The notes below the pieces were generated by a model. The model searched no databases. It was not told the DNA's origin and saw only the letters and a program-made list of their open reading frames with translations. The translations under genes and the position numbers were made by a program. From a virus (taxonomy: Duplodnaviria; Caudoviricetes), in IMG/VR virus record IMGVR_UViG_3300032024_000424, positions 1 through 55,711 of that record: a stretch of 55,711 nucleotides of DNA. One strand, 5' to 3'. This document shows positions 9,884 through 52,901 of this stretch, one piece after another. How positions within the stretch are numbered: the first letter of the stretch is position 1; every line of letters begins with the position of its first letter.

Positions 9884-11925
9884 TCGGTCACCTCCGCGAG
9901 CATGTCGGCGATCTCGCCTTCGATCTTCTTGAGGTCGGATTCGATCTCGTCGAGCGGCCGGGGCGGGGTGTACTGGTAGAAGTATCGGTTGAAGTTGATC
10001 TCGTAGCCGATCTTCGTCTTCGATTCATCGACCCAGGCATCGGGCATGTGCGGCAGAACCTCGCGCCGCATGTACTCGTCTATGTCTTCCTTGAGTGGGA
10101 CGTTCTCGTAGTCGCGCAGCTCGGGATCGGGTTCGGCCCCCGGATGTTTGCCCTTGGCGTCGGTGCAGACTTCGGCCGTCTCGTCGCGCTCGGCCAAGGC
10201 CATGAGGATCGCCTTGAACAGCGCGGCGTGCACCTTCAGGTCGGCCTTCTTGAACGCGGCTTTCATCTGATTCGAGAAGGCTTCGCGGTCCTTGACCACG
10301 CCGCTGCCTTGACTTCCGGGGGCGGCGAGCGTACGCAGGGCGGCGAGGATGGCTTCCTGCTGCTTACGACCAGCTTCGATCTCGGCCTGGGCGGCCTTGG
10401 TGTCCTTGCGCTTGCGGCTGGTGGCGAGCTTGGTGAACGGCGTGGCCTCCTGGAGGCGTGCGAGGCGTTCATCATTCACGGCGAAGTTCAGCCGGAGCGG
10501 ACGCTCGACGGTGATGCGCTGGTAGCCAAAGTCGGTGTTGTCGAAGATGCGGACGTGGTCGTCGTCAGAGAGTTGCCCGTAGAGGCGGGTGATGTCGTCG
10601 CGCTGGTCGTCGCAGACCTCGTTCCGCTTGTTACCGAGGCTCTTGCGCATCTTCTTGAAGAAGCTGGTGCCGTCGACCAGTTGAATCTTGCCCTTGCGGC
10701 CGGGCTCCTTGCGGTTGGTGACGATCCACAGGTAGGTGTAGATGCCGGTGTTGTAGAAGAGCTGGTCGGGCAAGGCGACGATGGCCTCGAGCCAGTCGTT
10801 CTCGATGATCCAGCGGCGGATTTCGCTTTCGCCTGAGCCCGCGCCGCCTGTGAACAGGGGCGAACCGTTGAAGACGATGGCCAGGCGGGTGACGCCGTCG
10901 CCTTCCGGGGGCGGGGCCTTCATCTTGCTGATCATGTGCTGGAGGAACAGCAGCGAGCCGTCGTTGATGCGAGGCAGCCCGGCACCGAAGCGGCCGCCGA
11001 AGCCCTGGCTCTCGTGCTCTCGCTTGATGGCATCCTGTTCCGGCTTCCACTCCACGCCGAAGGGCGGATTGGCGAGCATGTAGTCGAACTTGTGGCGGGG
11101 AAAGCGGTCGTCGGTGAAGCTGTCGCCGTAGGCGATGTGGTCGATGTTCTGGCCCTTGATCATCATGTCCGAGCCGCAGATGGCGTTGGCCTGGGCGTTG
11201 TAGTCCTGGCCGAATACCTCGAGCTGGGCGTCGGGGTTCAGCTCGCGGACGTAGTCTTCGGCGACGGAGAGCATGCCGCCGGTGCCGCAGGCGGGGTCGT
11301 AGAGCGTCTTGACGATGCCCTTGGTGGTCAGCACGTCGCTGTCGGGCATGAACAGCAGGTTGACCATGAGGCGGATGACCTCGCGCGGCGTGAAGTGGTC
11401 GCCCGCTTCCTCGTTCGATGCCTCGTTGAATCGCCGGATCAGCTCTTCGAAGACGTAGCCCATCTCGATGTTCGAGACACGGTCCGGGTGAAGGTCGATC
11501 TGGCAGAAGCGTGAGACGATCAGGTAGAGGCGGTCGGCCTTGTCCAGGCGGGCGATGTGCTCTTCGAAGCCGAACCGCTCAATGATCTCGCGGGCGCGGG
11601 TGGAGAAGCCCTTGATGTAGTTGGTGAGGTTGGCGGCGATGTTGTTCGGGTCGCCCTTGAGCTTCTCGAACGTGTAGCGGCTGGTGTTGTAAAAAGGGAC
11701 GCCGGTGACGCGACAGAGGATCGGCTCGACGTTCTTGACCTTGCCGCCTTCGAGCTTCTTCATGCGGTCGAGGACTTCGTCCTTGGTCGGCTCAAGCACG
11801 CAGTCCAAGCGGCGCAGGACGGTCAGCGGGAGCATGACGTCCTTGTACTGGTTGGGTCGGTACGGGCCGCGCAGCAGGTCCGCCACAGACCAAATGAAGC
11901 TGACTTTTTCGCCGAAGTTGTTCAC
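9880..11925 (-). CDS. hsdM: Type I R-M methyltransferase subunit
   Basis: HFTPREV, DPACGTGG, NPPFG. GTG start overlaps the upstream stop. Confidence 0.95.
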   Translation of the reverse strand: MNNFGEKVSFIWSVADLLRGPYRPNQYKDVMLPLTVLRRLDCVLEPTKDEVLDRMKKLEGGKVKNVEPILCRVTGVPFYNTSRYTFEKLKGDPNNIAANLTNYIKGFSTRAREIIERFGFEEHIARLDKADRLYLIVSRFCQIDLHPDRVSNIEMGYVFEELIRRFNEASNEEAGDHFTPREVIRLMVNLLFMPDSDVLTTKGIVKTLYDPACGTGGMLSVAEDYVRELNPDAQLEVFGQDYNAQANAICGSDMMIKGQNIDHIAYGDSFTDDRFPRHKFDYMLANPPFGVEWKPEQDAIKREHESQGFGGRFGAGLPRINDGSLLFLQHMISKMKAPPPEGDGVTRLAIVFNGSPLFTGGAGSGESEIRRWIIENDWLEAIVALPDQLFYNTGIYTYLWIVTNRKEPGRKGKIQLVDGTSFFKKMRKSLGNKRNEVCDDQRDDITRLYGQLSDDDHVRIFDNTDFGYQRITVERPLRLNFAVNDERLARLQEATPFTKLATSRKRKDTKAAQAEIEAGRKQQEAILAALRTLAAPGSQGSGVVKDREAFSNQMKAAFKKADLKVHAALFKAILMALAERDETAEVCTDAKGKHPGAEPDPELRDYENVPLKEDIDEYMRREVLPHMPDAWVDESKTKIGYEINFNRYFYQYTPPRPLDEIESDLKKIEGEIADMLAEVTE

Positions 11926-12116
11926 TGCCTCGCGCCTTTCTCGGGGTGCCGCTTGAGCCACTCGTCGATGGCCCCCTTGTGGAACCGCCACCGCTTGCCG
12001 ATCTTCTGCCCGGGGAGCTTATCCTCAACGGCCAGCTTGTAGAGCGTCGATTTGGAGATCTTCAGGTACTCCGCCAGCTCGTCCATGGTCATGATCTCGT
12101 GACGTTTAGTCGCCAT
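11922..12116 (-). CDS. Excisionase-like HTH DNA-binding protein
   Basis: MTMDELAEYLKISKSTLYKL...KIGKRWRF (HTH_17-like). Confidence 0.9.
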   Translation of the reverse strand: MATKRHEIMTMDELAEYLKISKSTLYKLAVEDKLPGQKIGKRWRFHKGAIDEWLKRHPEKGARQ

Positions 12117-27922: not shown

Positions 27923-30151
27923 ATGCAGGTGAGCTTGTGGCCGATTGAGCGTGTGAAGCCGTATGAGAACAACCCCCGCGTTGTGGAGAAGGCGGTGGAG
28001 CCGGTGGCCCGATCCATCCAGGAGTTCGGCTGGCGTCAGCCGCTGGTGGTGGACGAAGAGGGCGTGCTGATCGTGGGCCACGTTCGGCTGCTGGCCGCCC
28101 GGAAGCTCGGCCTGAAGGAGGTGCCGGTCCACGTCGCCACCGGCCTTTCGCCGGAGAGGGTCCGCGCCTACAGGCTTGCCGACAACAAGACCGGCGAGCT
28201 GGCTAAGTGGGACATGGATATCCTGCCCATCGAGCTGAACGAGCTGCGTGAGGGTGGATTTGATATGGGGGTGCTGGCGTTTGATGACGAAGAACTGGCG
28301 AAGCTGATCAACGCGGCGGCGGGTGTCACGGAGGGGCTGACCGACCCTGACGAGGTGCCCGAGCCGCCCGACGACCCGATCACGCAGCGCGGGGACATCT
28401 GGGTGCTCGGCGACCACCGCCTCATGTGCGGCGACTCGTCGAAGGCCGAGGACCTGGACCGTCTGCTGGACGGCGCGAACATCGACCTGTTTGCGAGTGA
28501 CCCGCCCTATAACGTCCGTGTCGAACCTCGCAGCAACAACGCGATCGCGGCGGGCAACTCCTCGTTCAAGGCGTCGGGCAAGAAGGCTGGTTCCGGGGGT
28601 GTTTCCGGGGGTGTTTCCGGGGGCGGCGGCCACCATCAGAAGATGGACCTGGCCCGCCACCCGGGCAAGGCCAAGGGCACGCACAAGCAGATGCGGGCCA
28701 AGGACCGGCCGCTCGCCAACGACTTCGTCCCCCCGGAAGTTTTCGACGAGATGCTGTTAGCTTGGTTCGGCAACGCGTCGCGCGTGCTCAAGCCCGGCGG
28801 CTCGTTCTACATCTGGGGCGGCTACGCCAACCTCGGCAACTACCCCGGCCCGCTGAAGGCGGCGGGCCTGTACTTCAGCCAGGGGATCGTCTGGGACAAA
28901 CAGCACCCGGTGCTGACGCGCAAGGACTTCATGGGCGCGTTCGAGCTGTGCCAACCGCCCGACACGAAGGTCATGACACCCGCGGGAGAATCGCGACTCA
29001 GCGCACTTTGTGATGACGATGAGGTAGTGACATTCGCCAAGAGTTCCGGCGCAATCATCGGTCACCGGCGTGGTCCGAAGGTTCGGGTCGGCACGCGTCA
29101 TTACGGCGGCCCGCTCTACGGCGTCACGGCTGAGGCAAAGACCACTTGGTGCACCGATGGTCACCAGTTCAGCGTCAGGCTGGCGCCTCATGTTCGCAAT
29201 GTCTGGTGCGTGTATCTCATGCGGCGTGGGCGGTGGTGGCGTGTTGGCAAATCAAAGCTCCTGACCACGTGGGGGCTTGGGGTGAAGCAGCGCCTGGAGA
29301 AGGAAGGGGGTGAGGAGGCGTGGATTCTCAGCACCCATATGTCAAACACCGAGGCGGCCTGCGCGGAGCAGATCGTTTCGGCCCGCTACGGAATCCCCAC
29401 GACGTATTGGACCGAAACGAAAAGTTCCAAGCGCACGCACTCGCAGATCGCTCGCATCTACGAGCGGATTGATCCGATGGCGCTGCACCGAAGCGCGCTG
29501 TGGGCGCTATCCGACTATCACCGCCGAATCGAATATCCGTTCATTGAGCGGCAAAACACCCGGCCCAAATATGGCCGTCGCGTTTCCTTCGTCACCCGTG
29601 CCTGCAACCTGCTGCCGGGCGTCATGGAATTGCCCGTTCCCACTGGGGGCCCACACTATCGGTGGACGCCGATTCGCCACGTCGATGTGCAGGATTACAG
29701 CGGGCAGGTCTACTCACTCGATGTGGCAAAGCACCACCACTATATCGCCGACGGCATGGTCACGCACAACTGCTTCTACGGCTGGAAGGAGGGCGCGGGC
29801 CACCACTTCTACGGCCCGAACAACGCGACCGACCTCTGGCACGTCAAGAAGGTGAACCCGCAGAGCATGGTCCACCTGACCGAGAAGCCGGTCGAGCTGG
29901 CGGTGCGCGCGATCCAGTACTCGTCCAAGCCCGGAGAAAACGTGCTGGACCTCTTCGGTGGCAGCGGCTCGACGCTGATCGGCTGCGAGCAGACGGACCG
30001 GCGTGCGTTCCTGATGGAGATCGACCCGGCGTATTGTGACGTTATTGTCCAGAGGTGGGAGCAGTTCACGGGGAAGAAGGCGGAGCGGACCGAGGCCGGC
30101 ACACCAGGCGATGCGGCGGCCGAGCCCGTGGGTGCGGAGGCTTCCTCATGA
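27923..30151 (+). CDS. ParB-like domain + N6/N4 DNA methyltransferase, intein-containing
   Basis: PYENNPR, GHxR, ADNKT; DPPY; HLTEKPVEL; DLFGGSGST. GGAGG RBS before ATG 27923. Confidence 0.92.
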   Translation: MQVSLWPIERVKPYENNPRVVEKAVEPVARSIQEFGWRQPLVVDEEGVLIVGHVRLLAARKLGLKEVPVHVATGLSPERVRAYRLADNKTGELAKWDMDILPIELNELREGGFDMGVLAFDDEELAKLINAAAGVTEGLTDPDEVPEPPDDPITQRGDIWVLGDHRLMCGDSSKAEDLDRLLDGANIDLFASDPPYNVRVEPRSNNAIAAGNSSFKASGKKAGSGGVSGGVSGGGGHHQKMDLARHPGKAKGTHKQMRAKDRPLANDFVPPEVFDEMLLAWFGNASRVLKPGGSFYIWGGYANLGNYPGPLKAAGLYFSQGIVWDKQHPVLTRKDFMGAFELCQPPDTKVMTPAGESRLSALCDDDEVVTFAKSSGAIIGHRRGPKVRVGTRHYGGPLYGVTAEAKTTWCTDGHQFSVRLAPHVRNVWCVYLMRRGRWWRVGKSKLLTTWGLGVKQRLEKEGGEEAWILSTHMSNTEAACAEQIVSARYGIPTTYWTETKSSKRTHSQIARIYERIDPMALHRSALWALSDYHRRIEYPFIERQNTRPKYGRRVSFVTRACNLLPGVMELPVPTGGPHYRWTPIRHVDVQDYSGQVYSLDVAKHHHYIADGMVTHNCFYGWKEGAGHHFYGPNNATDLWHVKKVNPQSMVHLTEKPVELAVRAIQYSSKPGENVLDLFGGSGSTLIGCEQTDRRAFLMEIDPAYCDVIVQRWEQFTGKKAERTEAGTPGDAAAEPVGAEASS
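28949..29770 (+). mobile_element. Intein (274 aa) with GIY-YIG-like insert
   Basis: Starts CQPPDTKV; TDGH block B; VYSLDV..HHYIADGMVTHN followed by extein Cys. Removal restores FEL-CFYGWKEG. Confidence 0.9.
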
Positions 30152-30392: not shown

Positions 30393-30763
30393 TCAGTATG
30401 GCGCTTCGGCCAGGTACATGAACTCGATCATGGCGTCTTCGTAGAGCGCGCCGGAGGCGGGGTAGGTGCGTCGCATGCGGACCTCGACGCAGCCGCGTTC
30501 CTTCATGAAGGCCAGCGCGACGTTGACCTGCGTGAAGGGCGCATCCATCGCCTGGGCGAGTTCCTCGAGCGTCGTGCCGCCCGCCGCGTGCTCCTCGATG
30601 GTGAATGCGACCTCGCGGAAGATGTGGCGGGTGCAGCGGTGGAGGTAACCTCTGTCCGGGGCGTCGGGGAACGAAACCTTCATCTCAAGGTGGTCGTCCA
30701 CACCACGTCGAAGGTCACGACTCTATTCCGGGGGCGGTTCCGGGGGCGGGGGTGGGTTGCCAT
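30393..30763 (-). pseudogene. Small HTH-like protein, likely 2-nt frameshift near 30702
   Basis: ATG 30763 (after AAGGAG) reads MATHP..VTFDVV; the continuation DDHLEMKV is out of frame. Confidence 0.5.
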
Positions 30764-33741: not shown

Positions 33742-33951
33742 ATGACCGCCGAATCCTTAAAAATCACGGCCCTGACGCCCGCCCAGGCCGCCCAGGTCCT
33801 CGCCACCGCCTACAAGCGGCGGATCGACGAGGCCCAGGTCCGCCGGGTGGCCGAGGAAGGCCAGTTGCTGCGCGCCGACGGCACGTTCAGCCTGATCGAA
33901 TACGTGGCCTTCCTGGCCCAAGAGGTAACGAATGCCCCCGCCCCCGGATAA
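33742..33951 (+). CDS. Small DNA-binding protein (possible terminase small subunit)
   Basis: Precedes the terminase; ADGTFSLIEYVAFL echoes TVDLFRYAAWL in the terminase N-terminus. Confidence 0.55.
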   Translation: MTAESLKITALTPAQAAQVLATAYKRRIDEAQVRRVAEEGQLLRADGTFSLIEYVAFLAQEVTNAPAPG

Positions 33952-36301
33952 CACCCCGCCCCCGGGTAACACCCCGCCCCCGCCCCCGGGTAAAGCTCCC
34001 GCCGCGATCAACCCGCGCCGGCTGCGCCCCGCCGACCTGTTACGCCTGGTCAACGCCACCGACATCGCCCAGGCCGGCGATTCCGGGGCTTCCGGCGGTG
34101 TGCTGACCGAGTTCCAGCTGCGCCGCCACCGCAATCGGGCGGGGTACACCATCGGCGATGCGCGCACGGTGGACCTGTTCCGCTACGCGGCCTGGCTGAC
34201 GCTCGAGTACTTTAAGCCGAAGTCTCGGAATGAACCGCTCACCTACGCCGAGCAGAAAGCCCGCCAGGCGGAGCGCAACGCCGAGGCGGTCCGCGCCGCC
34301 CAGGACATCGGCGAGATCCCCGCCGTCACCGACCCCGAACGCAAGGCGCGGTGCGGCAACGTGCCCGGGGGCTTCCGCGCGTTTTGCGAGACCTACTTCG
34401 CCGAGGTGTTCTACTTCGACTGGTCGCCGGACCATCTGCGTGTGATCGACAAGATCGAGAAGGCGGTGCGCACTGGCGGCCTCTTCGCCATGGCCATGCC
34501 TCGAGGATCGGGCAAGACCGTGATGTGTCAGACGGCGGTGCTGTGGTCGGCGCTGATCGGCGCGACGCCTTTTGTGTGCCTGATCGCCGCCAGCGCGGAG
34601 CGGGCCCGGGACCTACTCGAGAACATCAAGGTCTGGCTCGAGACCAACCCGCTCTTGGCGGAAGACTTCCCCGAGGTGACGTACCCGATCAAGTGCCTGG
34701 AGCGCATTACTAACCGGCAGAAGGGCCAGAAGTACCGGGGCGAGCCCACGCGGATCGACTGGTCCTCGGACCGCATCGTCCTACCGACGATTGCCGGGTC
34801 GAAGGCTTCCGGGGTGGTGATCTCCAGTTCGGGCATGAAGGGCAGCGACATCCGCGGGCAGAACTACGCCCGCGCCGACGGGCAGGTGGTGCGCCCGCAG
34901 TTGGTGCTGGTCGACGACCCGCAGACGACCGAGTCGGCGTGGTCGCCCTCGCAATCCCAGCGGCGCGAGGCGATCCTGGCCGGCGACGTATTAGGCATGG
35001 CCGGACCGGGCAGGAAGATCGCGGGGCTGATGGCCTGCACGGTGATCCGCCCCGGCGACATGGCGGACAACATCCTCGACCGCGACAAACACCCCGAGTG
35101 GCAGGGCGAACGGACCAAGATGGTCTACGCCTTCCCGTCTGATGAGAAACGCTGGGCCAGATATGCCGAACTGCGCGCCGACTCGCTGCGCAACGACGGC
35201 GACGGGTCGGAGGCGACCGCGTTCTACCGCGCCAACCGTGAGGCGATGGACGCCGGCGCTATCGTGGCCTGGCCGCAGCGCTTCAACGAGGACGAGCTGT
35301 CCGCCGTCCAGCACGCGATGAACCTCAAGCTGCGCGACGAGGCCGCGTTCTTCGCCGAGTACCAGAACGAGCCCATCGTCGAGGCCGTCGGCGAGGAGAT
35401 GCTCACCCCGGAACAGATCGCGGCCAAAACCAACGGCTACCCCCGGAACGGGGTTCCGTTGGGCTGTAACTACCTGACCATGTTCATCGACGTGCAGCAG
35501 CGGGTGCTGTTCTGGATGCTCTGCGCTTGGGAGGAGAACTTCACGGGCTACATCGTCGACTACGGCGCCTGGCCCGAGCAGCGCCGGTCGTACTACACCC
35601 TCAACGACCTCACCGCCACGCTCGGCCGGGCTATTCCGGGGGCGGGGGTGGAAGGGCAGATCTACGGCGGGCTTGAAAAACTCACCGCCGAACGCCTGGG
35701 CCGGGTCTACCGCCGCGAGGACGGCGCGGAGCTGCGGGTCGACCGCTGCCTGATCGACGCCAACTGGGGCCAGAGCACGGACGTGGTCTACCAGTTCTGC
35801 CGGCAGAGCACGCACGCAGGTCTATTGCTGCCCAGCCACGGCAAGTACGTCGGCGCTTCGAGCGTACCGTTTAGCGAGTACCGGCGCAAGCGCGGCGACC
35901 GCGTCGGCCTGCACTGGCGCATTCCGAGCACCATCGGCAAACGACAAGTGCGGCACGTGCTGGTCGACACCAACTACTGGAAGACCTTCGCGCACGCGCG
36001 CCTGGCGGTGGCGATGGGCGACCCGGGGTGCCTGTCGCTGTTCGGACACGACGATAAAACGCACCGGATGCTGGCCGACCACCTGACCGCCGAGTACCGG
36101 GTCAAGGCGACAGCGCAGGGCCGCACCGTCGACGAGTGGAAGCTCCGCCCCACCCGGCCGGACAACCACTGGCTGGACTGCCTGGTGGGCTGCGCCGTGG
36201 CGGCGTCGATCCAGGGCGCATCGCTGCCGGGCGTCGAACTGCGTGCGACGGTGGCCCGGCCGCGTGTGCGACTATCTGAGCTACAAGGGAGCAGGCGGTA
36301 G
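33932..36301 (+). CDS. Terminase large subunit (GpA-like)
   Basis: MPRGSGKT Walker A, LVLVDDPQ Walker B, FIDVQ, DNHWLDC nuclease. Confidence 0.9.
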   Translation: MPPPPDNTPPPGNTPPPPPGKAPAAINPRRLRPADLLRLVNATDIAQAGDSGASGGVLTEFQLRRHRNRAGYTIGDARTVDLFRYAAWLTLEYFKPKSRNEPLTYAEQKARQAERNAEAVRAAQDIGEIPAVTDPERKARCGNVPGGFRAFCETYFAEVFYFDWSPDHLRVIDKIEKAVRTGGLFAMAMPRGSGKTVMCQTAVLWSALIGATPFVCLIAASAERARDLLENIKVWLETNPLLAEDFPEVTYPIKCLERITNRQKGQKYRGEPTRIDWSSDRIVLPTIAGSKASGVVISSSGMKGSDIRGQNYARADGQVVRPQLVLVDDPQTTESAWSPSQSQRREAILAGDVLGMAGPGRKIAGLMACTVIRPGDMADNILDRDKHPEWQGERTKMVYAFPSDEKRWARYAELRADSLRNDGDGSEATAFYRANREAMDAGAIVAWPQRFNEDELSAVQHAMNLKLRDEAAFFAEYQNEPIVEAVGEEMLTPEQIAAKTNGYPRNGVPLGCNYLTMFIDVQQRVLFWMLCAWEENFTGYIVDYGAWPEQRRSYYTLNDLTATLGRAIPGAGVEGQIYGGLEKLTAERLGRVYRREDGAELRVDRCLIDANWGQSTDVVYQFCRQSTHAGLLLPSHGKYVGASSVPFSEYRRKRGDRVGLHWRIPSTIGKRQVRHVLVDTNYWKTFAHARLAVAMGDPGCLSLFGHDDKTHRMLADHLTAEYRVKATAQGRTVDEWKLRPTRPDNHWLDCLVGCAVAASIQGASLPGVELRATVARPRVRLSELQGSRR

Positions 36302-36541
36302 ATGGATTCAACCACGCGCAACCCATCACCCGGCCCTAAGCGGGGTCCGGGGGCTGGTTCGGGGGCTGGGGTCCGGGGGGCTGGGGTCCGGGGGCTGGCG
36401 TGCCCCCGTTGCGGCTGCGCCCACTTCCGCGTGCTCTATACCCGCGGCGCGTTGGGCGGGCGCCTGCTGCGCCGCCGCGAATGCCGCCACTGCGGGCGGC
36501 GCATCACGACGTATGAACAGGCCGCCGTGATCGCACGGTAG
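36302..36541 (+). CDS. Zn-ribbon protein (NrdR-N/Ogr-like)
   Basis: CPRCG...RRRECRHCG.RITTYE. Confidence 0.75.
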   Translation: MDSTTRNPSPGPKRGPGAGSGAGVRGAGVRGLACPRCGCAHFRVLYTRGALGGRLLRRRECRHCGRRITTYEQAAVIAR

Positions 36542-36874: not shown

Positions 36875-38382
36875 TGTGGCCGTTCCGCAGGAGGTCAGGG
36901 AAGACCACCCCCGGCAAGCGGTCCCTTCCGGTGACGTTGCGGGCCCGTTACGACGCGGCGCAGACCACCGCCGACAACGCCCGGCACTGGGCAATGGCCG
37001 ATGCCCTGTCGGCCGACGCCGCGGCCGCGCCGGGTGTCCGCAAGAAGCTGCGCGAACGTGCCCGCTATGAGGTGGCCAACAACAGCTACGCCAAGGGCAT
37101 CGTGCTGACACTCGCCAACGACTGCATCGGCACCGGCCCGCGCCTGCAACTGCTCAGCGACGACGCCGAGACGAACAACCGTGTCGAGAAGGCGTTTGCC
37201 CAGTGGGCCAGGGCGGTCAACCTGGCCGGGAAGCTGCGGGCCATGCGGATGGCCAAGGCGACCGACGGCGAGGTGTTCGCTGTGCTCACCGATAACCCGC
37301 ATCTTGACTCGCCCGTCCAGCTCGACGTGCAGTTAGTCGAGGCCGACCGCGTGGCGTTCCCCTGGTTCGCGGGCGCGCCGCTACATCCAGATGTCAGCGT
37401 ACTTCCCGGGGTCGACGGCGTGATCCTTGATCGCTTCGGCAACCCGCTAACCTACACCGTCCTGCGTCAGCACCCGGGCGACCCCCCCGGAAGTTCCCCC
37501 GGAAGTTCCCCCGGAAGGTGGACAGGCGGAGACTACGACGAGGTGCCCGCTGACGCCGTGATCCACTGGTTCCGCGCGGACCGGCCGGGCCAGCACCGGG
37601 GTGTCCCCGAGATCACGCCGGCGCTGCCGCTCTTCGCCCAGTTGCGCCGCTACACGCTGGCGGTGATCGCCGCCGCCGAAACCGCCGCGGACTTCGCGGC
37701 CGTGCTCTTCACCGACGCCCCGGCCAACGGTGAAGCGCAAGCGCTTGAGCCCATGGACGTGGTGGAACTCGAGAAACGCATGGCCACGGTGCTGCCCGAC
37801 GGTTGGCGGCTCGGGCAGATCGAGGCGCAGCAGCCGGCGACCGGGTACGCGGAGTTCAAGCACGAGATCCTCAACGAGATCGCACGGTGCCTGAACCTGC
37901 CGTTCAACGTCGCCGCCGGCAACAGCGCCGGCTACAACTACGCCTCCGGCCGGCTGGACCACCAGACCTACTTTAAGTCCATCCGCGTCGAGCAGGCGCA
38001 CCTCGCCGAGACGGTGCTCGACCCCATACTGACCGCCTGGCTCGATGAGGCGGTGCTGATCAACGAGTTCGCGTCGCTGCGCAACGCGGGCAGACCGGCA
38101 CATCAGTGGTTCTTCGATGGCACGGAGCACGTCGACCCGGCCAAGGAGGCCAACGCCCAGGCGACGCGGTTAGCCAGCAACACCACCACGCTCGCCGCCG
38201 AGTTCGCCCGGCAGGGCAAGGACTGGGAAGTTGAATTGCGCCAGCGTGCCAAGGAGCAGACGCTGATGAAAGAGTTGGGCTTGTCAATGGCGCCCGCGCA
38301 GGACCCAACCGCACCCACCGAAGATGAAGTCGAAGAGGAGACCGACACGGATGCCCTCCCAAGCGCACCAAACAACCAATGA
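36874..38382 (+). CDS. Lambda-family portal protein
   Basis: RYDAA, LRERAR, DGEVF, RPGQHRGVP, NYASGRLD, VDPAKE. Confidence 0.92.
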   Translation: MWPFRRRSGKTTPGKRSLPVTLRARYDAAQTTADNARHWAMADALSADAAAAPGVRKKLRERARYEVANNSYAKGIVLTLANDCIGTGPRLQLLSDDAETNNRVEKAFAQWARAVNLAGKLRAMRMAKATDGEVFAVLTDNPHLDSPVQLDVQLVEADRVAFPWFAGAPLHPDVSVLPGVDGVILDRFGNPLTYTVLRQHPGDPPGSSPGSSPGRWTGGDYDEVPADAVIHWFRADRPGQHRGVPEITPALPLFAQLRRYTLAVIAAAETAADFAAVLFTDAPANGEAQALEPMDVVELEKRMATVLPDGWRLGQIEAQQPATGYAEFKHEILNEIARCLNLPFNVAAGNSAGYNYASGRLDHQTYFKSIRVEQAHLAETVLDPILTAWLDEAVLINEFASLRNAGRPAHQWFFDGTEHVDPAKEANAQATRLASNTTTLAAEFARQGKDWEVELRQRAKEQTLMKELGLSMAPAQDPTAPTEDEVEEETDTDALPSAPNNQ

Positions 38383-40636
38383 CGCACCGCTCGAGTACCT
38401 GACCTTCGTCTGCCCGCTGACCTTCGAGGCGGCCCGTGACGAGCAGAAGCAGGCGCCGACCTTCCGCATGGTCGCGTACACCGGCGGGGTCATGCGGGTC
38501 AGCGGCTTCCCGCACCCGGTGGTGGTCGACCTCGAAGGCCTGGCCATCGATCGGCAGGACATCCCGGTGCGTCTGGACCACAACCCCCGCCAAGGCGTCG
38601 GGCACACGCAGCGCGTGGCCGTTGAGAACGGGTCCGTGATCGCCGAGGGCGTAATCAGCCGCGACACGGCCTGGGCCCGCGACGTAGCCAAGAGCGCCGC
38701 CAACGGCTTCCCCTGGCAGGCGAGCATCGGCGCCGCGGTCGTGGACGCCGAGTTCGTGCCCAACGGCCACCGCGTCACCGTCAACGGCCGGACGTTCGAC
38801 GGCCCGCTGCATGTGGTCCGCAAGGCCGTGCTCAAAGAGATCTCGTTCGTCGATAGCGGCGCCGACGCCCACACGAGCGCCCGCGTCGCCGCCCAACGCA
38901 ACCCCGACAATCACACCCCCTCGCAGGAGCAGCTTTCCATGCCTACCGACCAAGTCCCCAGCAGCGATACCAGCAGCAACGCAACCGCCACCACGGATCC
39001 GGCGGGTTCCACCGATCAGCCCGGTACCACGGGCAACGCCGCGCAGGATGCGCCCGCCCAGTCGCCCGCAGGCGACAACGGCCAGGCGACGGGCAACAAG
39101 GGGTCGGTCACACCCGGCGCACCCGCAATGGGCAAGCCCGACGGTTCGCCGGCGCCGGGCGCCACGCAGCGGAACCAAGCGCCGGCGTCGTTACACGCCG
39201 CCGATACGACAAACACATCCAGGGGCGCGTCCACGCGCGAGGTCGACGTCGACCCTATGTTGCAGATGCGCCAGCGTGTGGCGGCTGAATCGCGGCGCAT
39301 CGAGGCCGTCCGCAAGATCTGCAACGGCAAGTACCCATCGATCGAAGCCCAGGCCATCGAATCGGGCTGGGACGCCACCCGCACCGAGCTGGAGGTGCTG
39401 CGCGCCTCGCGGCCCAAGGCCCCGATGGTCCAGACGCACAGTTCGAATGATGGACCCGCCCCCGGAGGCAATGGGCACGTACTCGAAGCCGCGTGCATGC
39501 TCACCGCCAAGCTCGGCGATGTCGAGAAGCTCTATGATGAGCGCACGCTCGACGCCGCCAGCAAGCGCTACCGTGGCGGCATCGGGCTGCAGGAGCTGCT
39601 GCTGGAGGCGGCGTGGGCCAACGGCTACACCGGCCGGAACTTCCGCGACCCCCGGAACGTGCTGCGCCACGCCTTCGGCACGCCGGGCGCCGGGTATCCG
39701 GGGGCGGGACTTCCGGGGGCGGGGGCGGGAGTAGAAGCCGCGTTCTCGACGGTCGATGTCGGTGGCATCCTGTCCAACGTCGCCAACAAGTTCCTGCTCG
39801 AGGGCTTCTTCAGCGTCGAGCGGACCTGGCGGAACATCACCGCCATCCGCAACGTCAGCGACTTCAAGACCGTTACCAGCTACCGCCTGATCGGTAAGGA
39901 CCAGTACGAGCAGGTCGCCCCGGGCGGCGAACTCAAGCACGGCACGCTGGGCGAGGAGCAGTACTCGAACAAGGCCGACACGTACGGGCTGCTCTTGTCG
40001 ATCGACCGGCGCGACATCATCAACGACGACCTGGGCGCGATCACGACCGTGCCCCGCAAGCTCGGGCGTGGCAGCGGCCTGAAGATCAACGACGTGTTCT
40101 GGACCACGTTCCTCAACAATGCCGCGTTCTTCAATTCCGGGGACAAGAACTTCATCAGCGGCGCGGGCACGGCCCTGTCGATCGACGGGCTGACCTCGGG
40201 CGAGACGGCCTTCATGGACCAGGTCGATTCCGACGGCAAGCCGATCGGGATCATGCCTGCGGTGTTGCTGGTGCCCACGGCGCTCAGTGCCATCGCCACC
40301 ACGCTCTGGAAGTCGCTGGAGATCCGCGACGCCAGCACTTCCGGGGGGAAGTACCCGGTCGCCAACCCGCACCAGGGCAAGTTCCGCGTCGAGGTCAGCC
40401 GCTACCTCTCTAACAGCACCTATGCCGGGGGCAGTGCCAAGGCGTGGTACCTGCTGGCCGACCCCAACGACCTGCCGGTGATCGAAACCGCGTTCTTGAA
40501 CGGTCAGGAGTCACCCACCATCGAGACCACCGAGGCGGACTTCAACGTGCTGGGCGTGCAGATGCGCGGCTACCACGACTTCGGCGTCGCCCTGCAGGAC
40601 CCGCGCAGCGGCGTCAAGGCCAAGGGCGAGGCGTGA
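38351..40636 (+). CDS. Prohead protease-scaffold-major capsid fusion
   Basis: AYTGG, LDH, WQASIG, EISFV..GAD protease; low-complexity linker; capsid domain (VSDFK, FLNGQESP, DFGV). Confidence 0.88.
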   Translation: MPSQAHQTTNDAPLEYLTFVCPLTFEAARDEQKQAPTFRMVAYTGGVMRVSGFPHPVVVDLEGLAIDRQDIPVRLDHNPRQGVGHTQRVAVENGSVIAEGVISRDTAWARDVAKSAANGFPWQASIGAAVVDAEFVPNGHRVTVNGRTFDGPLHVVRKAVLKEISFVDSGADAHTSARVAAQRNPDNHTPSQEQLSMPTDQVPSSDTSSNATATTDPAGSTDQPGTTGNAAQDAPAQSPAGDNGQATGNKGSVTPGAPAMGKPDGSPAPGATQRNQAPASLHAADTTNTSRGASTREVDVDPMLQMRQRVAAESRRIEAVRKICNGKYPSIEAQAIESGWDATRTELEVLRASRPKAPMVQTHSSNDGPAPGGNGHVLEAACMLTAKLGDVEKLYDERTLDAASKRYRGGIGLQELLLEAAWANGYTGRNFRDPRNVLRHAFGTPGAGYPGAGLPGAGAGVEAAFSTVDVGGILSNVANKFLLEGFFSVERTWRNITAIRNVSDFKTVTSYRLIGKDQYEQVAPGGELKHGTLGEEQYSNKADTYGLLLSIDRRDIINDDLGAITTVPRKLGRGSGLKINDVFWTTFLNNAAFFNSGDKNFISGAGTALSIDGLTSGETAFMDQVDSDGKPIGIMPAVLLVPTALSAIATTLWKSLEIRDASTSGGKYPVANPHQGKFRVEVSRYLSNSTYAGGSAKAWYLLADPNDLPVIETAFLNGQESPTIETTEADFNVLGVQMRGYHDFGVALQDPRSGVKAKGEA

Positions 40637-41142: not shown

Positions 41143-41562
41143 TTGGGAGTGTCGGTCTTGCCCCCCGGAAATGATCTTCTCCGCCAGGGCTCGCAGTGGC
41201 TGGAGCAGATGCGCACGGCGTACTGTTCGAGCCCCGTCATCTACCGCCGGGCCGGTCAGCCCGACGCGCAGGTCAACGCGACGTTCGGCAAGACCGACTA
41301 CGAGGCCGCCGACGAGTCGGGCTTTACGACGGGCGGGCACGTCTGGGACTTTTTGATCCTGGCCGACGAACTATGGCTCGCGTTCGGCGAGCCGGAAGCG
41401 GGTGACACGATCGTGGCCGAGGGCAGGCGGCATGAGGTGCTGGCGCTGGGCAATGACGTGAAGGGGTGGCGGTGGAGCGATCCGTACCGGCGGACCTACC
41501 GCATCCACACCAAGGACATCGGACCCCCGGACCCCCCGGAACCCCCGGACCCCCCGGAATAG
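41143..41562 (+). CDS. Head-tail joining protein
   Basis: Position; DFLI, EPEAGD.I, WRWSD..R.HTK. Start uncertain. Confidence 0.7.
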   Translation: MGVSVLPPGNDLLRQGSQWLEQMRTAYCSSPVIYRRAGQPDAQVNATFGKTDYEAADESGFTTGGHVWDFLILADELWLAFGEPEAGDTIVAEGRRHEVLALGNDVKGWRWSDPYRRTYRIHTKDIGPPDPPEPPDPPE

Positions 41563-41566
41563 ACAC

Positions 41567-41820: not shown

Positions 41821-43239
41821 ATGGAGGCAAACATGAAGGATACGAGACGTAAACACGGGTTGTGGAACAGCTGCGCCATCGCCGGCGTGGTAGCGATGAT
41901 CATCGCCCTGCTGCCCAGCGCCCAGGCCCAGACGGTGACGGTCACCGGCGAAGTCAAAGGGCATGCGGATGTAAGCGCGCTGGTCGAGCGTCTCGACGAC
42001 CTGCAATCACAGATCGACGACCTCCGTGAGGCGATCGGAGTCGCCTCGGATGAATCGCCCGCCCCGCCCCCGGAATCCCCGGAACCCGCCCCGGAACCCC
42101 CGGACTCCGACCCCGCAGCCTCGAACACCGGCAAGATCGGTATGAACGCGGGCTTCGTCTGGCGATCCAACTTCACCCATCCCGACCAGCCGGGCGCCCC
42201 CGCCCCCACCCCCGCCCCCGGAATTGGCGTTGGCGACTACTACGACCTGCTCCGGCCGGTCTGCTCGGTCTACCGGCCGATGAATTGGAACAGGATCAAC
42301 GACTTTCGGCCCGAGGTCGATTCAATCGAAGATCCGCACCTGTACGAGGGCAAGACGTGGCGCGACGCGCTGGCCGCGCAGGTCGGGGTGTGCAACGCCG
42401 TCGGCGCATCCGGGGGCACATCCGGGGGCGTATCCGGGGGCGCGGGGTTTTATTTCAACGTCCCGGTGCGAGCGACGCCGGGGTTCGTGCGCGAGGCGGT
42501 CGCGTTCATCCGCACCAACCTGCACGCCCCGGGAAAGATATACATCGCCTACGCCAACGAGGTGTGGTTGCCGGGCCGCTTCCCGTATGACCATCTTAAG
42601 GACGTCTCGGGTGTCGATCCGGGGGCGGGTGACAACGCCTTCTTCGACCTGTGGGCGGAGAAGCTCGACATGACGTTCACCGCCGCGCGCGAGGCGGACC
42701 CCAAGTGCATCCGCGTCGTCGAGACCAAGACGGCGCGCGACGGCACGTGGTTCACCGAGCAGATCGTCAAACGCTTGACGCTCCGGGGGTCGGATTACGA
42801 CGCCGTGGCGGGAACGCTGTACTTCTCGCCGAAGTGGCCAAGCGGCTATTGGGAAACGATGAGCGTGGCTGACGCGTTCGGCGAGGCCCAAAAGGAGTGG
42901 ACAGACGACGACCGTAAGTGGCAGGAGGCGAATATCCGGTGGGCAAAGGACCGGGGCAAGCTGGCGATCGCTTACGAGGCAGGCCAGCACTTCCACGACA
43001 TCAGCATGCGTCCCGCTTTAGTCAAGACGCTGGAGCGATGCCAGACCGACCCGCGCATGGGCGATCTCTACAAGACCGTCTACGGCCACGCCCTGGACGC
43101 CGGCATCGACCTGATTATCGACTTCGACTGGATCGATTGGTCGAACCGGCACGGTTACTGGGGCAAGGCCCCGACGCTCGAGGAGCTGCCCGGATCGATC
43201 AAATACCGAGCCGTGAATGAGATCGCAGTGAGCTATTGA
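41821..43239 (+). CDS. Secreted glycoside-hydrolase-like moron
   Basis: Signal peptide (AQA), Pro-rich linker, YANEVW and AYEAGQH motifs resembling clan GH-A catalytic glutamates. Confidence 0.6.
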   Translation: MEANMKDTRRKHGLWNSCAIAGVVAMIIALLPSAQAQTVTVTGEVKGHADVSALVERLDDLQSQIDDLREAIGVASDESPAPPPESPEPAPEPPDSDPAASNTGKIGMNAGFVWRSNFTHPDQPGAPAPTPAPGIGVGDYYDLLRPVCSVYRPMNWNRINDFRPEVDSIEDPHLYEGKTWRDALAAQVGVCNAVGASGGTSGGVSGGAGFYFNVPVRATPGFVREAVAFIRTNLHAPGKIYIAYANEVWLPGRFPYDHLKDVSGVDPGAGDNAFFDLWAEKLDMTFTAAREADPKCIRVVETKTARDGTWFTEQIVKRLTLRGSDYDAVAGTLYFSPKWPSGYWETMSVADAFGEAQKEWTDDDRKWQEANIRWAKDRGKLAIAYEAGQHFHDISMRPALVKTLERCQTDPRMGDLYKTVYGHALDAGIDLIIDFDWIDWSNRHGYWGKAPTLEELPGSIKYRAVNEIAVSY

Positions 43240-43700: not shown

Positions 43701-43703
43701 ACG

Positions 43704-44521: not shown

Positions 44522-44533
44522 GGAGACCTATCA

Positions 44534-45036: not shown

Positions 45037-45038
45037 CT

Positions 45039-45518: not shown

Positions 45519-45751
45519 CACTGCGCCAACTGCTGTGGATGGCGGAGGGCTTAGGCAGAGAGCGTTGGGCCCACACTTCGCTGATCTGTGCCCTGATCGC
45601 CAATAGCAACCGCGACCCGAAGAAGCACCGGCCGTTCAAGCCGTCGGATTTCGACCCTTACGCACGCACCGATCGACGATCACGGAAGGTCGCCGAGAAA
45701 GAGTCGCTACAGGTTCTTAGAGAGGCCCTCGAAGCCCGCCCCCGGAAGTAG
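45335..45751 (+). CDS. gpT-like -1 frameshift extension
   Basis: -1 frame open from the slippery site through LTLRQLLWMAEG...RDPKK..F.P.DF.P. Confidence 0.65.
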   Translation, partial: PGARPQRPGQGGRQADGHDRRGGHRDRDETRSDQCGADDRWRDVWRIAGSLGLGPSGLGRLTLRQLLWMAEGLGRERWAHTSLICALIANSNRDPKKHRPFKPSDFDPYARTDRRSRKVAEKESLQVLREALEARPRK

Positions 45752-45805
45752 CCCGGAAGTAACCCCGGAAATAACCCCGCAACCCCTAACTGAAAGGCAA
45801 CTGGC

Positions 45806-46180: not shown

Positions 46181-46226
46181 CCCCCGGAATTCGATCTCTC
46201 TCAACCCCCACGAAAGAGGACCGCAC

Positions 46227-46562: not shown

Positions 46563-46595
46563 GCAGTACCAGCCACCAGCCACAGGAACCCCTCC

Positions 46596-46826: not shown

Positions 46827-46829
46827 CCC

Positions 46830-49064: not shown

Positions 49065-49138
49065 GGAAAAGCAGGAAAGCAGGAAAGCAGGAAATCCGAT
49101 CCCCAACCCCCAATCCCTAACCCCTAATCCCCACCCCC
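49065..49138. repeat. (GGAAAGCA)n plus CCCCAAT/CCCTAAC heptamer repeats
   Basis: Read directly; shares ATCCGATCCCCAA with the repeat near 45000. Confidence 0.7.
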
Positions 49139-50865: not shown

Positions 50866-52901
50866 TGACCAGCACCGCGAGCAACCGCTGCTGCTGTGAC
50901 TGTACCGGCATGGGCCTGCCGATCTTCACCGATTGGAAGGTCAACCGGAGCAAGTGGCTCGATGCCGAGTCCTACGCCGTGGGCGACCTGGTCTTCTTGG
51001 GCAGCCCGGCGGTCTATTACGTCTGCCACCTCGCCCACATATCCGAAGCGGGCACGAACTCGCCGCCCAACGCGACCTACTGGACGGTCGCCGATCGGGC
51101 ACTCAAGTGCCTCTATATTGCAACCGCCGGCATCGGCCTGAAGGATTGCATCCCCCTGGTCGGGATCGAGGACGGCGAAGACCCGACCGCCACCGGAGCC
51201 CGCAACCGCCTGGCGCTGGCGAACGTGCAACTCAACGACAAGTGGCTGCTACGCCAGCGCAATCCCCGCGCGGACTCAAACGGTAACCAGAACACGATCC
51301 TGGCCACCTACGAAGGTGCGCTCGGCTCCGCCTGCTGGTGGCAGCACATCTGCGACTGCACCCGCGACATCTACACCGAGGTCACCACTGTCCAGACCCA
51401 GGTCGGGTTGATCACGGTGTGGACGGATTCCTACTCCTCATCCTTCATCATCCAGGTCGCCTTCACGCCCACGCCCCCGGAGCCCCCGGGGCCCCCGGGG
51501 GTGGAGGTCGTGATCGCCGGCAGCTTCACGCCCATGAGTTCGGGCGCGGACGGTGACCACGAACCCGACAAGCTCACCGACACGCCGTGCGTGCATCCGA
51601 CCCTCTGGACCAGTGTTTTTACGGAGTACTTCCGCGGCACGGCCAGCATCCCCGCGAACTGGATCGACGCTTACGGCGTGCCCACTTCCGACATCGTCAT
51701 ATCCAACCAGCATAGTTGTGCGGACATCGGCACCATCCTGGACCCCGGCGTGGTGCCGACCGGGCATTTCTTACCGATCGACCGATCGATCATCGCGGGC
51801 GGCGGCGGGACCGTCACGCTCACCGCGCCGTTCGCCCCCGGCTGGCAGAACACCATCGGCAACGCGGCGGTCAGTTGCGGCGCGGTGCCGGCGTGCGACG
51901 CGGGCGACCCGCCGGTGCCGCCGCCGCCTTGGTGTCCGGACTGCGGCCCCGGAGGCGGCGGGGGTGGTGGAGGGGGCGGCGGCGATATTCCTCCCCCGCC
52001 ACCCCCGCCGAGACGGCCCTGGCGCAAGCTCAATAAGTGTGACGGCGGCGGGTTCAGCGGCTTGTGGGTGTCGGGCGCGAGCTACGGCCGGGCGGGCATC
52101 GTCATCAAGGCCGACCTGGCCAGCGGTGAAACCTGCCTGGTCACCGGCGAGTTGCAAAACAGCGCCTGGCCGCCCGGGCCGCTGCTGAACAGCACAGTAC
52201 TGGGCATCTTCGACACCTGCGCCGACTGCGACCAGTGCTGGAAGCTCGTCGGCTGCCCGGGCTCGACCATGGGCACCGTCCACACCGACGTAGACCTGAG
52301 CGCCTGGGAAGGCCGGGTCGTCGAGGTCCTGAGCATCGACGGTGTGGATCAGGAAGGCCAATGCGCGACGGTCAGCAGCGCCAGCAACTGCCCGGAGACG
52401 CAGGACGCGATCATCGGCGCGACGCTCACCGGCTGCGACGACCCCGCGTGCGGGGCCTGCCAGTGCGGAGAGTGCTGTTACAAGACGAGCACGACGCTGG
52501 ATGTGAATTACACATCTTTCTTTGAATCCGAAGCAGGCACCACGACAACCACCATCACCGGCACGCTTGAAATGGGTGAGGCATGTGGCGTGTTTGGGGG
52601 GACGCTCACCAAGCACCAGGAGAAAACCGTGGCTAACGGTCCACCTCCTGAACCCACTCCCGACGTGGAGTTGGATGGGGCCGTGGTGTGGGTGGACTGC
52701 GGTAGCGCCGCGTGGAACTGGAACTCAGAATCAGGCCTGCCGGCCAAGGCTGATCTAACCAACAAGGTTAATAATGATGGTGCTATGCTGGACGAAGATT
52801 GCACCAGCCTTACCTACAACTTTGACGACGGCTTTCCCGTCGTATTTGGCCACAGCACCGAAGACCTCGCCCTCACGCCCAGCAACAGCTCATGTTCATA
52901 A
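50865..52901 (+). CDS. Cys-rich putative receptor-binding/fibre protein
   Basis: CCC N-terminus, CBM5/12-like W...Y..GD.V...YVC..AH.S...P...W, Pro/Gly linker, many CxxC. Confidence 0.6.
   Translation: MTSTASNRCCCDCTGMGLPIFTDWKVNRSKWLDAESYAVGDLVFLGSPAVYYVCHLAHISEAGTNSPPNATYWTVADRALKCLYIATAGIGLKDCIPLVGIEDGEDPTATGARNRLALANVQLNDKWLLRQRNPRADSNGNQNTILATYEGALGSACWWQHICDCTRDIYTEVTTVQTQVGLITVWTDSYSSSFIIQVAFTPTPPEPPGPPGVEVVIAGSFTPMSSGADGDHEPDKLTDTPCVHPTLWTSVFTEYFRGTASIPANWIDAYGVPTSDIVISNQHSCADIGTILDPGVVPTGHFLPIDRSIIAGGGGTVTLTAPFAPGWQNTIGNAAVSCGAVPACDAGDPPVPPPPWCPDCGPGGGGGGGGGGGDIPPPPPPPRRPWRKLNKCDGGGFSGLWVSGASYGRAGIVIKADLASGETCLVTGELQNSAWPPGPLLNSTVLGIFDTCADCDQCWKLVGCPGSTMGTVHTDVDLSAWEGRVVEVLSIDGVDQEGQCATVSSASNCPETQDAIIGATLTGCDDPACGACQCGECCYKTSTTLDVNYTSFFESEAGTTTTTITGTLEMGEACGVFGGTLTKHQEKTVANGPPPEPTPDVELDGAVVWVDCGSAAWNWNSESGLPAKADLTNKVNNDGAMLDEDCTSLTYNFDDGFPVVFGHSTEDLALTPSNSSCS

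Follow-up and report, generated by a model that had tools for sequence, protein, structure and literature searches.

What kind of element is a short DNA word that occurs dozens of times in a single phage genome, on both strands and partly as tandem repeats written in frame into genes? The question is raised by the window analysed here, a stretch of 55,711 nucleotides from a tailed virus (IMG/VR record IMGVR_UViG_3300032024_000424), and the word is CCCCCGGA/TCCGGGGG. With a probability of about 0.9, it is an iterated genomic DNA word that is a heritable trait of some clades of Phycisphaerae-group Planctomycetota, is denser in temperate phages and mobile elements, and is gained by substitution and tandem duplication.

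The window contains 62 copies of the 8-mer, while dinucleotide shuffles gave a mean of 4.93 (standard deviation 2.2, maximum 12), and none of 100 shuffles reached 62. An order-3 Markov model predicts 2.7 copies, and the word is by far the top over-represented 8-mer. The 9-mer CCCCCGGAA is found 40 times against 0.63 expected. The copies are split 31/31 between the strands and 59 of the 62 lie inside genes; relative to transcription 29 are sense, 30 antisense and three intergenic, and all six phases are occupied. A sequence-only reading of the same DNA had described a pervasive motif with dozens of copies on both strands and had placed the signal at the DNA level. Both claims hold, the latter also with respect to codon choice, which is biased toward the word, and the counts cannot be accounted for by shuffles or by a Markov model, a fit to the latter being what that reading had named as its refutation.

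The consensus was built from the core of the window (10001-51600) and 23 motif-rich related loci, 388 kb, and contrasted with poor relatives (1,012 kb) whose guanine-plus-cytosine (GC) content is similar. The 8-mer occurs 400 times in the rich pool and 30 times in the poor relatives, while the corresponding numbers for the 9-mer are 315 and 5, so that the two densities differ about 160-fold. Of the copies, 81% are preceded by G or A at position -1, 83% have A at +9 and 47% have G at +10. The true word is thus R-CCCCCGGAA-G, that is, the ten-letter (G/A)CCCCCGGAA with a preference for G at +10. As no longer flank is conserved, it is a bare word of 9-11 nucleotides and no part of a larger element. 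It differs from its reverse complement and is therefore asymmetric and non-palindromic. Words with one mismatch occur at 0.36 to 6.8 times their density in poor phages and are mostly mildly enriched or neutral; two CpG-transition neighbours are somewhat low (0.54 and 0.36), based on small counts. Close inverted pairs (within 60 nucleotides) in the rich phage loci are convergent in 12 cases (CCCCCGGAA ... TTCCGGGGG) and divergent in one. The convergent pairs could form hairpins with a 9-bp stem.

It had also been considered that the arrays might be an assembly artefact. Logan contigs of the runs X1 and X2 match positions 28001-48000 with 0 differences in the listed pieces and span at least nine arrays, X1 and X2 being probably the source sample filed twice, so that the same data were put through an independent assembler and contigs, not raw reads, were compared. 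One Logan contig stops inside the array of 9-nucleotide period at about 41528, and another joins 41559 to 30726, apparently via repeats. A third run, X3, holds diverged relatives only. Since the Logan contigs agree with the window and the word recurs across isolates, metagenome-assembled genomes (MAGs) and viral contigs, an artefact is excluded.

The copies are confined to the core of the window, where they form 46 loci, 37 of them single and nine being arrays of 2-4 copies. The two ends are devoid of the word although the GC content is similar in the motif-free ends and the core (0.62 and 0.65); the description of the motif as scarce in the first 10 kb was thus an understatement. The homologous restriction-modification cargo of a relative (L299) has one copy in 9 kb. 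All 12 tandem arrays listed in the sequence-only reading are present, nine with 2-4 perfect 8-mers and three with one perfect copy and close variants, and the two peptides it quoted, from the ParB-methylase and the portal, are correct, as are its single hsdM copies. Within proteins the preferred sites are linkers, loops and termini. The features are as follows.

1..10136: left cargo without the motif, 0 copies, GC 0.62; DUF2924, serine integrase, hsdR, Schlafen/AlbA_2, hsdS and RhuM.
10137..51481: motif-bearing core with all 62 copies of CCCCCGGA, 40 being CCCCCGGAA; 1.5 per kb.
10137 (plus), 10315 (minus) and 10904 (minus): single copies in hsdM; two fall in insertions of 3 and 5 residues that set the protein apart from its nearest homologue, the third in a variable loop.
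28591..28623, minus: three 12-nucleotide units in the linker of the ParB_N-methylase, encoding GSGGVSGGVSGG.
30726..30752, minus: two 12-nucleotide units between two small minus-strand open reading frames (ORFs).
31866..31898, plus: three 12-nucleotide units in the HARE-HTH gene (antisense), encoding TSGGISGGTSGG.
31935-31970: convergent inverted pair after the HARE-HTH array.
33936..34003, plus: array of 18/24-nucleotide period at the start of the large terminase (TerL) gene and the end of the upstream 69-codon ORF, one perfect copy and CCCCCGGG variants.
35635..35642, minus: single copy at the conserved TerL 'PGAG' site, made by codon choice and replacement of A/T/V by I/L, with no insertion.
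36342..36398, minus: three copies of about 15-nucleotide period in an ORF for an NrdR-like zinc ribbon.
37484..37517, plus: three 12-nucleotide units in the portal gene, encoding PPGSSPGSSPG.
39697..39729, minus: two 15-nucleotide units in the linker directly before the major capsid domain of the 770-residue capsid protein.
41520..41559, plus: four contiguous 9-nucleotide units that form the C-terminal tail (PPDPPEPPDPPE) of the head-tail joining protein.
42052..42115, plus: two perfect and two 7-mer copies in the gene of a 472-residue protein of unknown family.
42403..42443, minus: three 12-nucleotide units in the gene of the same 472-residue protein, encoding GASGGTSGGVSGGA.
45739..45779, plus: one perfect copy and two CC(C)CGGAA variants, from a gene end into the next spacer.
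51473..51500, plus: one perfect copy and two CCCCCGGGG variants of 9-nucleotide period in the gene of a 678-residue tail protein.
51482..55711: right end without the motif, 0 copies; includes a HigB/HigA-like pair.

Copies are gained by two routes, namely point substitution, including amino-acid changes, and duplication of units of 9-18 nucleotides. Alignment of homologues had been proposed as a means to find out whether the units are insertions, and when it comes to TerL, portal, capsid and neighbouring genes of the relatives, 71 of 187 copies (38%) do overlap insertion columns relative to the window, while insertions make up 1.3% of the aligned residues in those genes. Compared with nearly all of the 45 orthologues shown, the portal has 9 residues inserted at the array, next to a conserved His-Pro-Gly proto-motif (CAC CCC GGN). 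The same portal loop has expanded independently in L008, L009, L031 and L090. At the 'PGAG' site of TerL, the rich phages have altered codons and swapped the preceding A/T/V for I/L, thereby completing TTCCGGGGG.

The turnover can be followed in 12 prophages of the window's family found in one host genome, G057. These display 49 sites, of which 24 are private and none is common to more than seven prophages. Where a prophage lacks the word at a site, 171 cases show a gap and about 230 a substitution. The youngest differences among these prophages include gains of one or two bases and the gain or loss of whole units. The unit periods in genes are 9, 12, 15 and 18 nucleotides; periods of 10, 11, 13 and 14 are rare and found mainly in the host data. 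A same-strand neighbour within 8-24 nucleotides is found for 18% of the copies, while the median over 8,717 common words is 0. For other C5 words the paired share is 0-6%; slippage in C5 runs was rejected as a cause since these words form no arrays. A general proneness to slippage was also rejected, as tandem repeats without the motif occur at 17.2 per 100 kb in rich and 18.3 in poor phages, while motif arrays differ 39-fold between the two groups.

The word has also left a footprint on the proteins. Pro-Pro-Glu is spelled CCC-CCG-GAA in 18 of 41 cases in the rich phages (2.7 expected) and in 15 of 24 in the rich host G063, but never in 38 cases in the poor phages. Ser-Gly-Gly is likewise spelled TCC-GGG-GGN in 85 of 149 cases in the rich phages (4.7 expected), in 33 of 62 in G063 and in one of 129 in the poor phages. 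Per codon, the two tripeptides are about 2.8 times commoner in rich than in poor phages. Uptake signal sequences (USS) are described as using all frames and poorly conserved positions, as enriching the encodable tripeptides about 2-fold and as missing from genes that are newly acquired or have no homologues (Findlay and Redfield 2009, PMC2817400). A footprint of the USS type is supported here because the tripeptide, frame, position and cargo patterns agree with those described in that paper.

The window phage is a phage of Planctomycetota (Phycisphaerae), as judged from portal relatives, which were found in at least 599 viral and 433 genomic stretches; those with a name are nearly all from Planctomycetota, mainly Phycisphaerae, Phycisphaerales or Phycisphaeraceae. 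No match to the window at the DNA level, near or distant, was found in the phage collection. Among the related loci of at least 12 kb, the word is the top 8-mer in 18 of 82, with a GC content of 0.53-0.68 and a portal identity of 59-85%, while the others are without it. In a FastTree portal tree of 106 rows, richness requires 8 changes, compared with 21 when the labels are shuffled, and none of 500 shuffles was as low; 54 of 160 loci had been left out of this tree due to intermediate density, short length or duplicate portal sequences. The tree displays one main rich clade of 15, which includes the window, and at least five other rich lineages.

The word is not restricted to this phage family. 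Tandem pairs of the 9-mer occur in at least 118 stretches of the viral collection, and among the matches listed, 54 of 79 new loci share no protein with the window within the DNA compared. A second phage family with an HK97-type portal, protease and capsid and a Terminase_6 TerL bears the word at 0.4-1.7 copies per kb, and no protein shared between this family and that of the window was found. An integrative element bears the word as well. Matches consisting of a single array in a CRESS-like contig, in one ORF of a T4-like contig and in a 35%-GC contig are probably unrelated low-complexity sequences.

Host chromosomes were surveyed by counting motif and control word in 151 genomes of the order of G003, inferred to be Phycisphaerales; the set includes G111, which is flagged as unpublished and on which no claim rests. 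The ratio of motif to control ranges from about 0.3 to 21, and the word is enriched genome-wide in some host clades; a comparison of 8-mer counts between element and host chromosome had been proposed as a check. The numbers are 2,335/112 for G063, 1,087/72 for G116, 440/31 for G079, 747/56 for G057 and 1,539/120 for G149. Forward and reverse counts are always similar, and about 27 of the 151 genomes, counted by eye, reach at least four times the control. The copies and arrays of the rich hosts lie in ordinary genes, for instance the tail of SSB, an N-terminal extension of ThyA, FtsW/RodA and a gene with an RF-1 domain; other sites are found near S6, GreA and NuoA, in flagellar hook genes and in genes for sugar enzymes. 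The sample of G063 covers 231 kb and is biased, as 7 of its 10 contigs were picked for carrying arrays; its three largest contigs have 0.38-0.50 copies per kb. G063 has 63 sense and 65 antisense copies, and 80 triple arrays were found in it. In a DprA tree, a single-gene tree of 38 out of 40 selected extreme genomes, richness requires 6 changes compared with 13 after shuffling, and none of 500 shuffles gave so low a number. The tree has three supported clades of rich genomes, and the poor G146 falls among rich genomes, with G062 and G107 as its rich sisters. Since the word is the top 8-mer at GC contents from 0.53 to 0.68 and is enriched also in the 52%-GC genome G057, the excess is independent of base composition.

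The 7.4 Mb contig G057:C1 (loci L195, L204, L207-L216 and L219-L230) contains at least 12 prophages of the window's family. Their portals are 72-75% identical to that of the window, and among themselves their DNA identity is 82-96%. Nine of them are gathered at 2.68-3.35 Mb, and all but one of the 12 point in the same direction. In the richest hosts, G063 and G116, no prophages of the window's family were seen.

Taken together, the data require a sequence-specific, orientation-independent and copy-number-dependent pressure on duplex DNA, which is inherited with the host clade and is stronger or faster on mobile elements. The duplicated unit is the word together with 0-9 adjoining bases. Purifying selection spares a copy only if it is in frame and its site is tolerant, for example a linker, loop, terminus or spacer. 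Cargo acquired recently has so far gained no copies, and sites turn over fast while the overall density is maintained. We infer a machinery, encoded by the host clade, that would read the word in either orientation with an effect that rises with copy number. The closest working model is a molecular drive of the kind proposed for the USS of Pasteurellaceae and the DNA uptake sequences (DUS) of Neisseriaceae, in which DNA with more copies is preferentially captured and inherited. That the word functions as an uptake signal is, by analogy, a tentative proposal. It shares with the words of Haemophilus and Neisseria the asymmetry, a length of 9-12 nucleotides, hundreds to thousands of copies and the presence on both strands. 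The likeness extends to the use of all frames, poorly conserved positions, enriched encodable tripeptides, absence from newly acquired genes, clade specificity and accumulation in the temperate phages of the hosts (Findlay and Redfield 2009; Szafranski et al.). As with USS and DUS, the word is hyper-abundant on the chromosomes of the rich clades, core genes included (G063; SSB, ThyA and FtsW/RodA), but this does not extend to the rich-prophage hosts G001, G002 and G158. Of the four explanations offered in the sequence-only reading, a host site similar to HIP1 (highly iterated palindrome 1) or DUS fits best, given the genome-wide occurrence in host clades and the proteome footprint, except that the palindromy of HIP1 is lacking.

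Several observations weigh against an uptake function, among them the relation between phage and host. The prophages are denser than their hosts in nine of nine pairs, by a factor of 3-30, while the density of USS in phages of Pasteurellaceae saturates near the host level (PMC6776037). The following densities, in copies per kb, illustrate the difference.

L090: 2.72, host G003 0.22.
L083: 0.65, host G001 0.054.
L082: 0.56, host G002 0.03.
L088: 0.74, host G137 0.044.
L140: 0.68, host G128 0.035.
L081, L084 and L113: 1.38, 1.30 and 0.37, host 9-mer densities 0.046, 0.085 and 0.013.

Within the single contig of G057, twelve 20-kb stretches centred on prophages have 108 copies (0.45 per kb), while eight stretches of the backbone have 22 copies (0.14 per kb) against one copy of the control word. 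Three rich and reliably integrated prophages reside in chromosomes that are barely enriched (G001, G002 and G158). G001 is a complete isolate chromosome and has, outside a few islands, about one copy per 20-40 kb. The poor hosts G128 and G157 do have contigs that are dense in the motif, but most of these are additional members of the window's phage family. Short MAG contigs are possibly mis-binned and host assignments may thus err, but L083, L082, L113 and the prophages of G057 lie in large contigs. Phages may evolve faster and tolerate insertions better, and would then arrive at a higher equilibrium before chromosomes do; uptake of phage DNA, if it occurs, would offer them an additional route of transmission.

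The other points concern the word itself and what is known about its hosts. The copies are mildly clustered and unevenly spaced (variance/mean 1.35-1.65), and no alternative 'dialect' word was seen in 200 kb each of the poor genomes G021 and G007. The best word in G021:C1 (L277-L286), which is moderately over-represented, is GGAAGTCGAA, with 17 copies of the 10-mer (A)GGAAGTCGAAGA(T) in 200 kb against 0.5 expected, and this word may simply encode a common acidic peptide. To our knowledge, natural transformation has not been reported in Planctomycetota, and no publication on uptake sequences in this phylum was found. Of the 40 selected genomes, 39 have ComEC and 38 have DprA, and neither gene discriminates rich from poor. 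No reader protein for the word was found among the phage genes, ComEC, DprA and Vsr compared. In-frame tandem arrays with periods of 9-18 nucleotides are not described for USS or DUS, and 'tandem' does not occur in PMC2817400.

The comparisons aimed at a determinant gave mostly negative results. No phage gene cleanly tracks richness within 10 kb on either side of the portal (23 rich and 72 poor loci), and none does so in the extended early regions of 10 rich and 6 poor prophages. An ORF at 32651-32914 is present in 10/10 rich and 0/6 poor prophages, yet in the wider set it occurs in 14/23 rich and 26/72 poor loci. As two unrelated phage families share the word, no phage gene tracks richness, and ComEC and DprA are present, a determinant on the host side is favoured. 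Orthologues of a platform protein similar to that of type II secretion systems (at least 48% identity) occur in 9/20 rich and 1/20 poor genomes, a difference confounded by phylogeny. In the isolate G001, locus L161 (G001:C1:990001-1010000) has at approximately 4.6-15 kb a low-GC island (0.57) with genes for a secretin, a GspE-like ATPase with an MshEN domain, a GspF platform protein and pseudopilins, and this island has 8 motif copies in 4 kb. It is a lead only. An excess driven by Vsr was rejected, since Vsr is found in 6/20 rich and 5/20 poor genomes and the transition neighbours are not strongly depleted. A role at mosaic junctions was also rejected, as flank conservation is 0.55 compared with 0.49 and the junction score 0.084 compared with 0.110.

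A pressure exerted by a host may act through something other than uptake. The word could be a binding-site array for another DNA reader of the host clade, either an abundant protein involved in nucleoid structure or segregation, or part of a defence system to which DNA with the motif counts as self. Selection to acquire many sites would in that case be strongest in mobile elements, and avidity would increase with tandem copies. This explanation is doubtful, but it accounts for much that is awkward for an uptake signal, namely the higher density in phages in all nine pairs and the rich prophages of barely enriched chromosomes, as well as for the arrays being specific to the motif, the usage regardless of orientation and the occurrence in an unrelated phage family and an integrative element. 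It also accommodates rich prophages of two distant portal lineages in one host. These are found in the MAG G002 (L082, L126, L135 and L164-L166), together with one poor prophage of the same family. Arrays within housekeeping genes of rich hosts would be odd for a silencer, however, and the comparisons made yielded no candidate gene. We know of no such reader system with an unoriented word of 9-11 nucleotides at 0.2-2.7 copies per kb.

It is unlikely that the word is a self-propagating mutational product without any function. According to this explanation copies would template each other by microhomology-mediated template switching or short-patch conversion, fastest in phages with recombination genes, and spill over into lysogenised chromosomes. 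Unit duplications next to proto-motifs, the very quick turnover and the mild enrichment of one-mismatch neighbours would all be expected. So would the top density in phages that encode PDDEXK, AAA_24 and DUF669 recombination genes, and the coexistence of the prophages and an enriched backbone in G057. But tandem repeats in general are equally dense in rich and poor phages, other C5 words have no arrays, and there is no excess at mosaic junctions. The poor kin have homologues of the helicase, DUF669 and AAA_24, and PDDEXK in 2/6. The richest hosts showed no prophage of the window's family, and the non-synonymous changes that complete the word at a conserved terminase site suggest a benefit.

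Chi sites, which attenuate RecBCD or AddAB, are over-represented and clade-specific short words from which phages could profit. A Chi-like signal mimicked by phages in order to protect their ends, with tandem copies raising the chance of recognition, would explain the density in phages, the arrays and the clade specificity, and an AddB-like PD-(D/E)XK protein is found in G003. It is nevertheless very unlikely. The Chi sites of E. coli have a polarity of 77:23, and a comparable polarity would have given a large chi-square. Strand polarity was rejected for the present word (per-contig strand heterogeneity, p = 0.64), which is balanced even at a GC skew of +/-0.1 and evenly divided between sense and antisense both in the window and in G063. 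A tally of the positions in the window shows that the orientation is unchanged across the presumed cos region. Known Chi sites are 5-8 nucleotides, so the present word is longer, and hosts of rich prophages may have few copies, for example one per 19 kb in G001.

The word might also be intrinsic to the phage, that is, a site for the terminase small subunit, a ParB-type protein or a repressor, with host copies being secondary. Phages do have the highest density, an array is found at the start of the terminase gene, the window encodes a ParB_N-methylase, and the copies of poor hosts are concentrated in the window's phage family. A repressor would make the sites resemble the stoperators of cluster A mycobacteriophages, dozens of asymmetric sites of 13-14 nucleotides across a temperate phage genome, which are phage-specific, mostly intergenic and oriented with transcription. 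The class was rejected, as 59 of the 62 copies are genic, their orientation is random relative to transcription, and the word is shared with host chromosomes and unrelated phages. An intrinsic site is most unlikely also because the second phage family bears the word without sharing any protein with the window, rich hosts have arrays in housekeeping genes, and the ParB-methylase is present in 11/23 rich and 47/72 poor loci. The same host genes and unrelated phages speak against a phage-specific compaction or packaging site, as had been suggested from the sequence alone. A G-quadruplex or i-motif formed by the G5/C5 runs is hardly credible. Arrays of at least four units (41520-41559, and many in G063) do fit the quadruplex pattern, but 37 of 46 loci in the window are single and only one has four units, and the enrichment of single copies equals that of arrays. 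Such a structure would not need the invariant GGAA part, and other C5 words are unamplified.

Two other known elements are similar in some respects. HIP1 of cyanobacteria is a genome-wide hyper-abundant 8-mer within genes; it is palindromic and linked to methyltransferases, while the present word stands apart in its asymmetry, its arrays and its peak density in phages. Rickettsia palindromic elements are mobile palindromes of 100-150 nucleotides inserted in frame into genes, and both they and the present word lengthen proteins in frame at tolerant sites, but the latter is bare and has no longer conserved flank. In the literature searched, with subscription-only papers and supplements lying outside the search, neither this word nor any iterated word or uptake sequence in Planctomycetota is described, and the full-text matches listed for the word itself are primers and constructs only. 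The word belongs to a known kind, the iterated genomic word, but its motif-specific tandem amplification in frame and the highest density being in phages are unprecedented traits within it. The sequence-only reading is accordingly supported in part: it lacked the density in phages above that of hosts, the nature of the arrays as recurrent independent insertions, and the non-palindromy.

Pfam scans of the proteins encoded in the window identify a temperate, lambda-like siphovirus with the following layout.

1-2078: DUF2924 and serine integrase, left end.
2502-5642: hsdR of a type I restriction-modification system, cargo block.
7425-8771: hsdS of the same type, cargo block.
9880-11991: hsdM of the same type, cargo block.
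Early and replication region: sigma-70-like protein, PD-(D/E)XK nuclease, AAA_24, DUF669, helicase and PrimPol-DUF3987.
27785-30151: ParB_N-methylase (N6/N4 methylase, 788 amino acids).
33932-36301: gpA-type large terminase.
36871-38382: lambda-family portal.
Further structural genes: 770-residue capsid protein, cement, head-tail joining, tube and tape-measure proteins.
Right end: HigB/HigA-like pair.

The restriction-modification cargo (hsdR, hsdS and hsdM; 2502-11991) is 50-65% identical to that of prophages in G128 and G001 (L299 1065-9146; L317). Genes for Schlafen/AlbA_2 and RhuM sit between the type I genes, and this insertion is a trait of the window's copy of the cargo. The ParB_N-methylase appears to contain an intein of about 320 residues, with a match to Pfam Intein_splicing at residues 626-662; the orthologues of L164, L166 and L300 have 451-469 amino acids and align in two pieces around the insert. 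The capsid gene (38324-40636) shares 59 nucleotides with the end of the portal gene. The major capsid domain comprises residues 474-766 of its product, and the long N-terminal part is possibly a fused scaffold or protease.

Spacers directly upstream of structural genes contain perfect or near-perfect tandem repeats of 7-8 nucleotides in 3.4-5.7 copies (41106-41130, 44972-44998, 45005-45035, 49068-49094 and 49101-49139), the units being CTCATAC, TAGCCAT, ATCCCCA, AAAGCAGG and CCCCAAC. Arrays of period 7, such as (TTCGTCA)n and (GGAGACA)n, number 39 in 231 kb of the motif-rich host G063 and 4 in 1,012 kb of poor phage loci, and are a lineage trait separate from the main word. A second recurrent word, GGGTGAAA/CTTTCACC, has 6-8 copies per locus in L012, L032, L048, L051, L073, L097, L102 and L113. 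It occurs in relatives with or without the main motif and may be a regulatory site of this phage family.

Few iterated words have a known reader; USS/DUS, Chi and the FtsK-orienting polar sequences (KOPS) are examples, and the model groups that supplied them are only a handful. The word described here belongs to a phylum with little genetics and is detectable in many genomes and viral contigs. It raises the questions of whether Planctomycetota take up DNA selectively, whether phages exploit the recognition words of their hosts, and to what extent a drive at the DNA level remodels proteins. In practice, it could serve as a marker for host prediction of uncultured Phycisphaerae phages and for the residence time of cargo, and as a candidate tag for better DNA delivery into the hard-to-transform bacteria of this group. 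The odds appear to be about even that it is a shared identity word whose effect depends on copy number, being either the first uptake-signal system outside Proteobacteria, exploited by phages for the uptake of their naked DNA, or a new unoriented 'self' tag mimicked by mobile elements. If so, the pressure would in either case suffice to place tandem insertions, in frame, in portals, capsids, terminases, SSB and ThyA, and thus to reshape proteomes.

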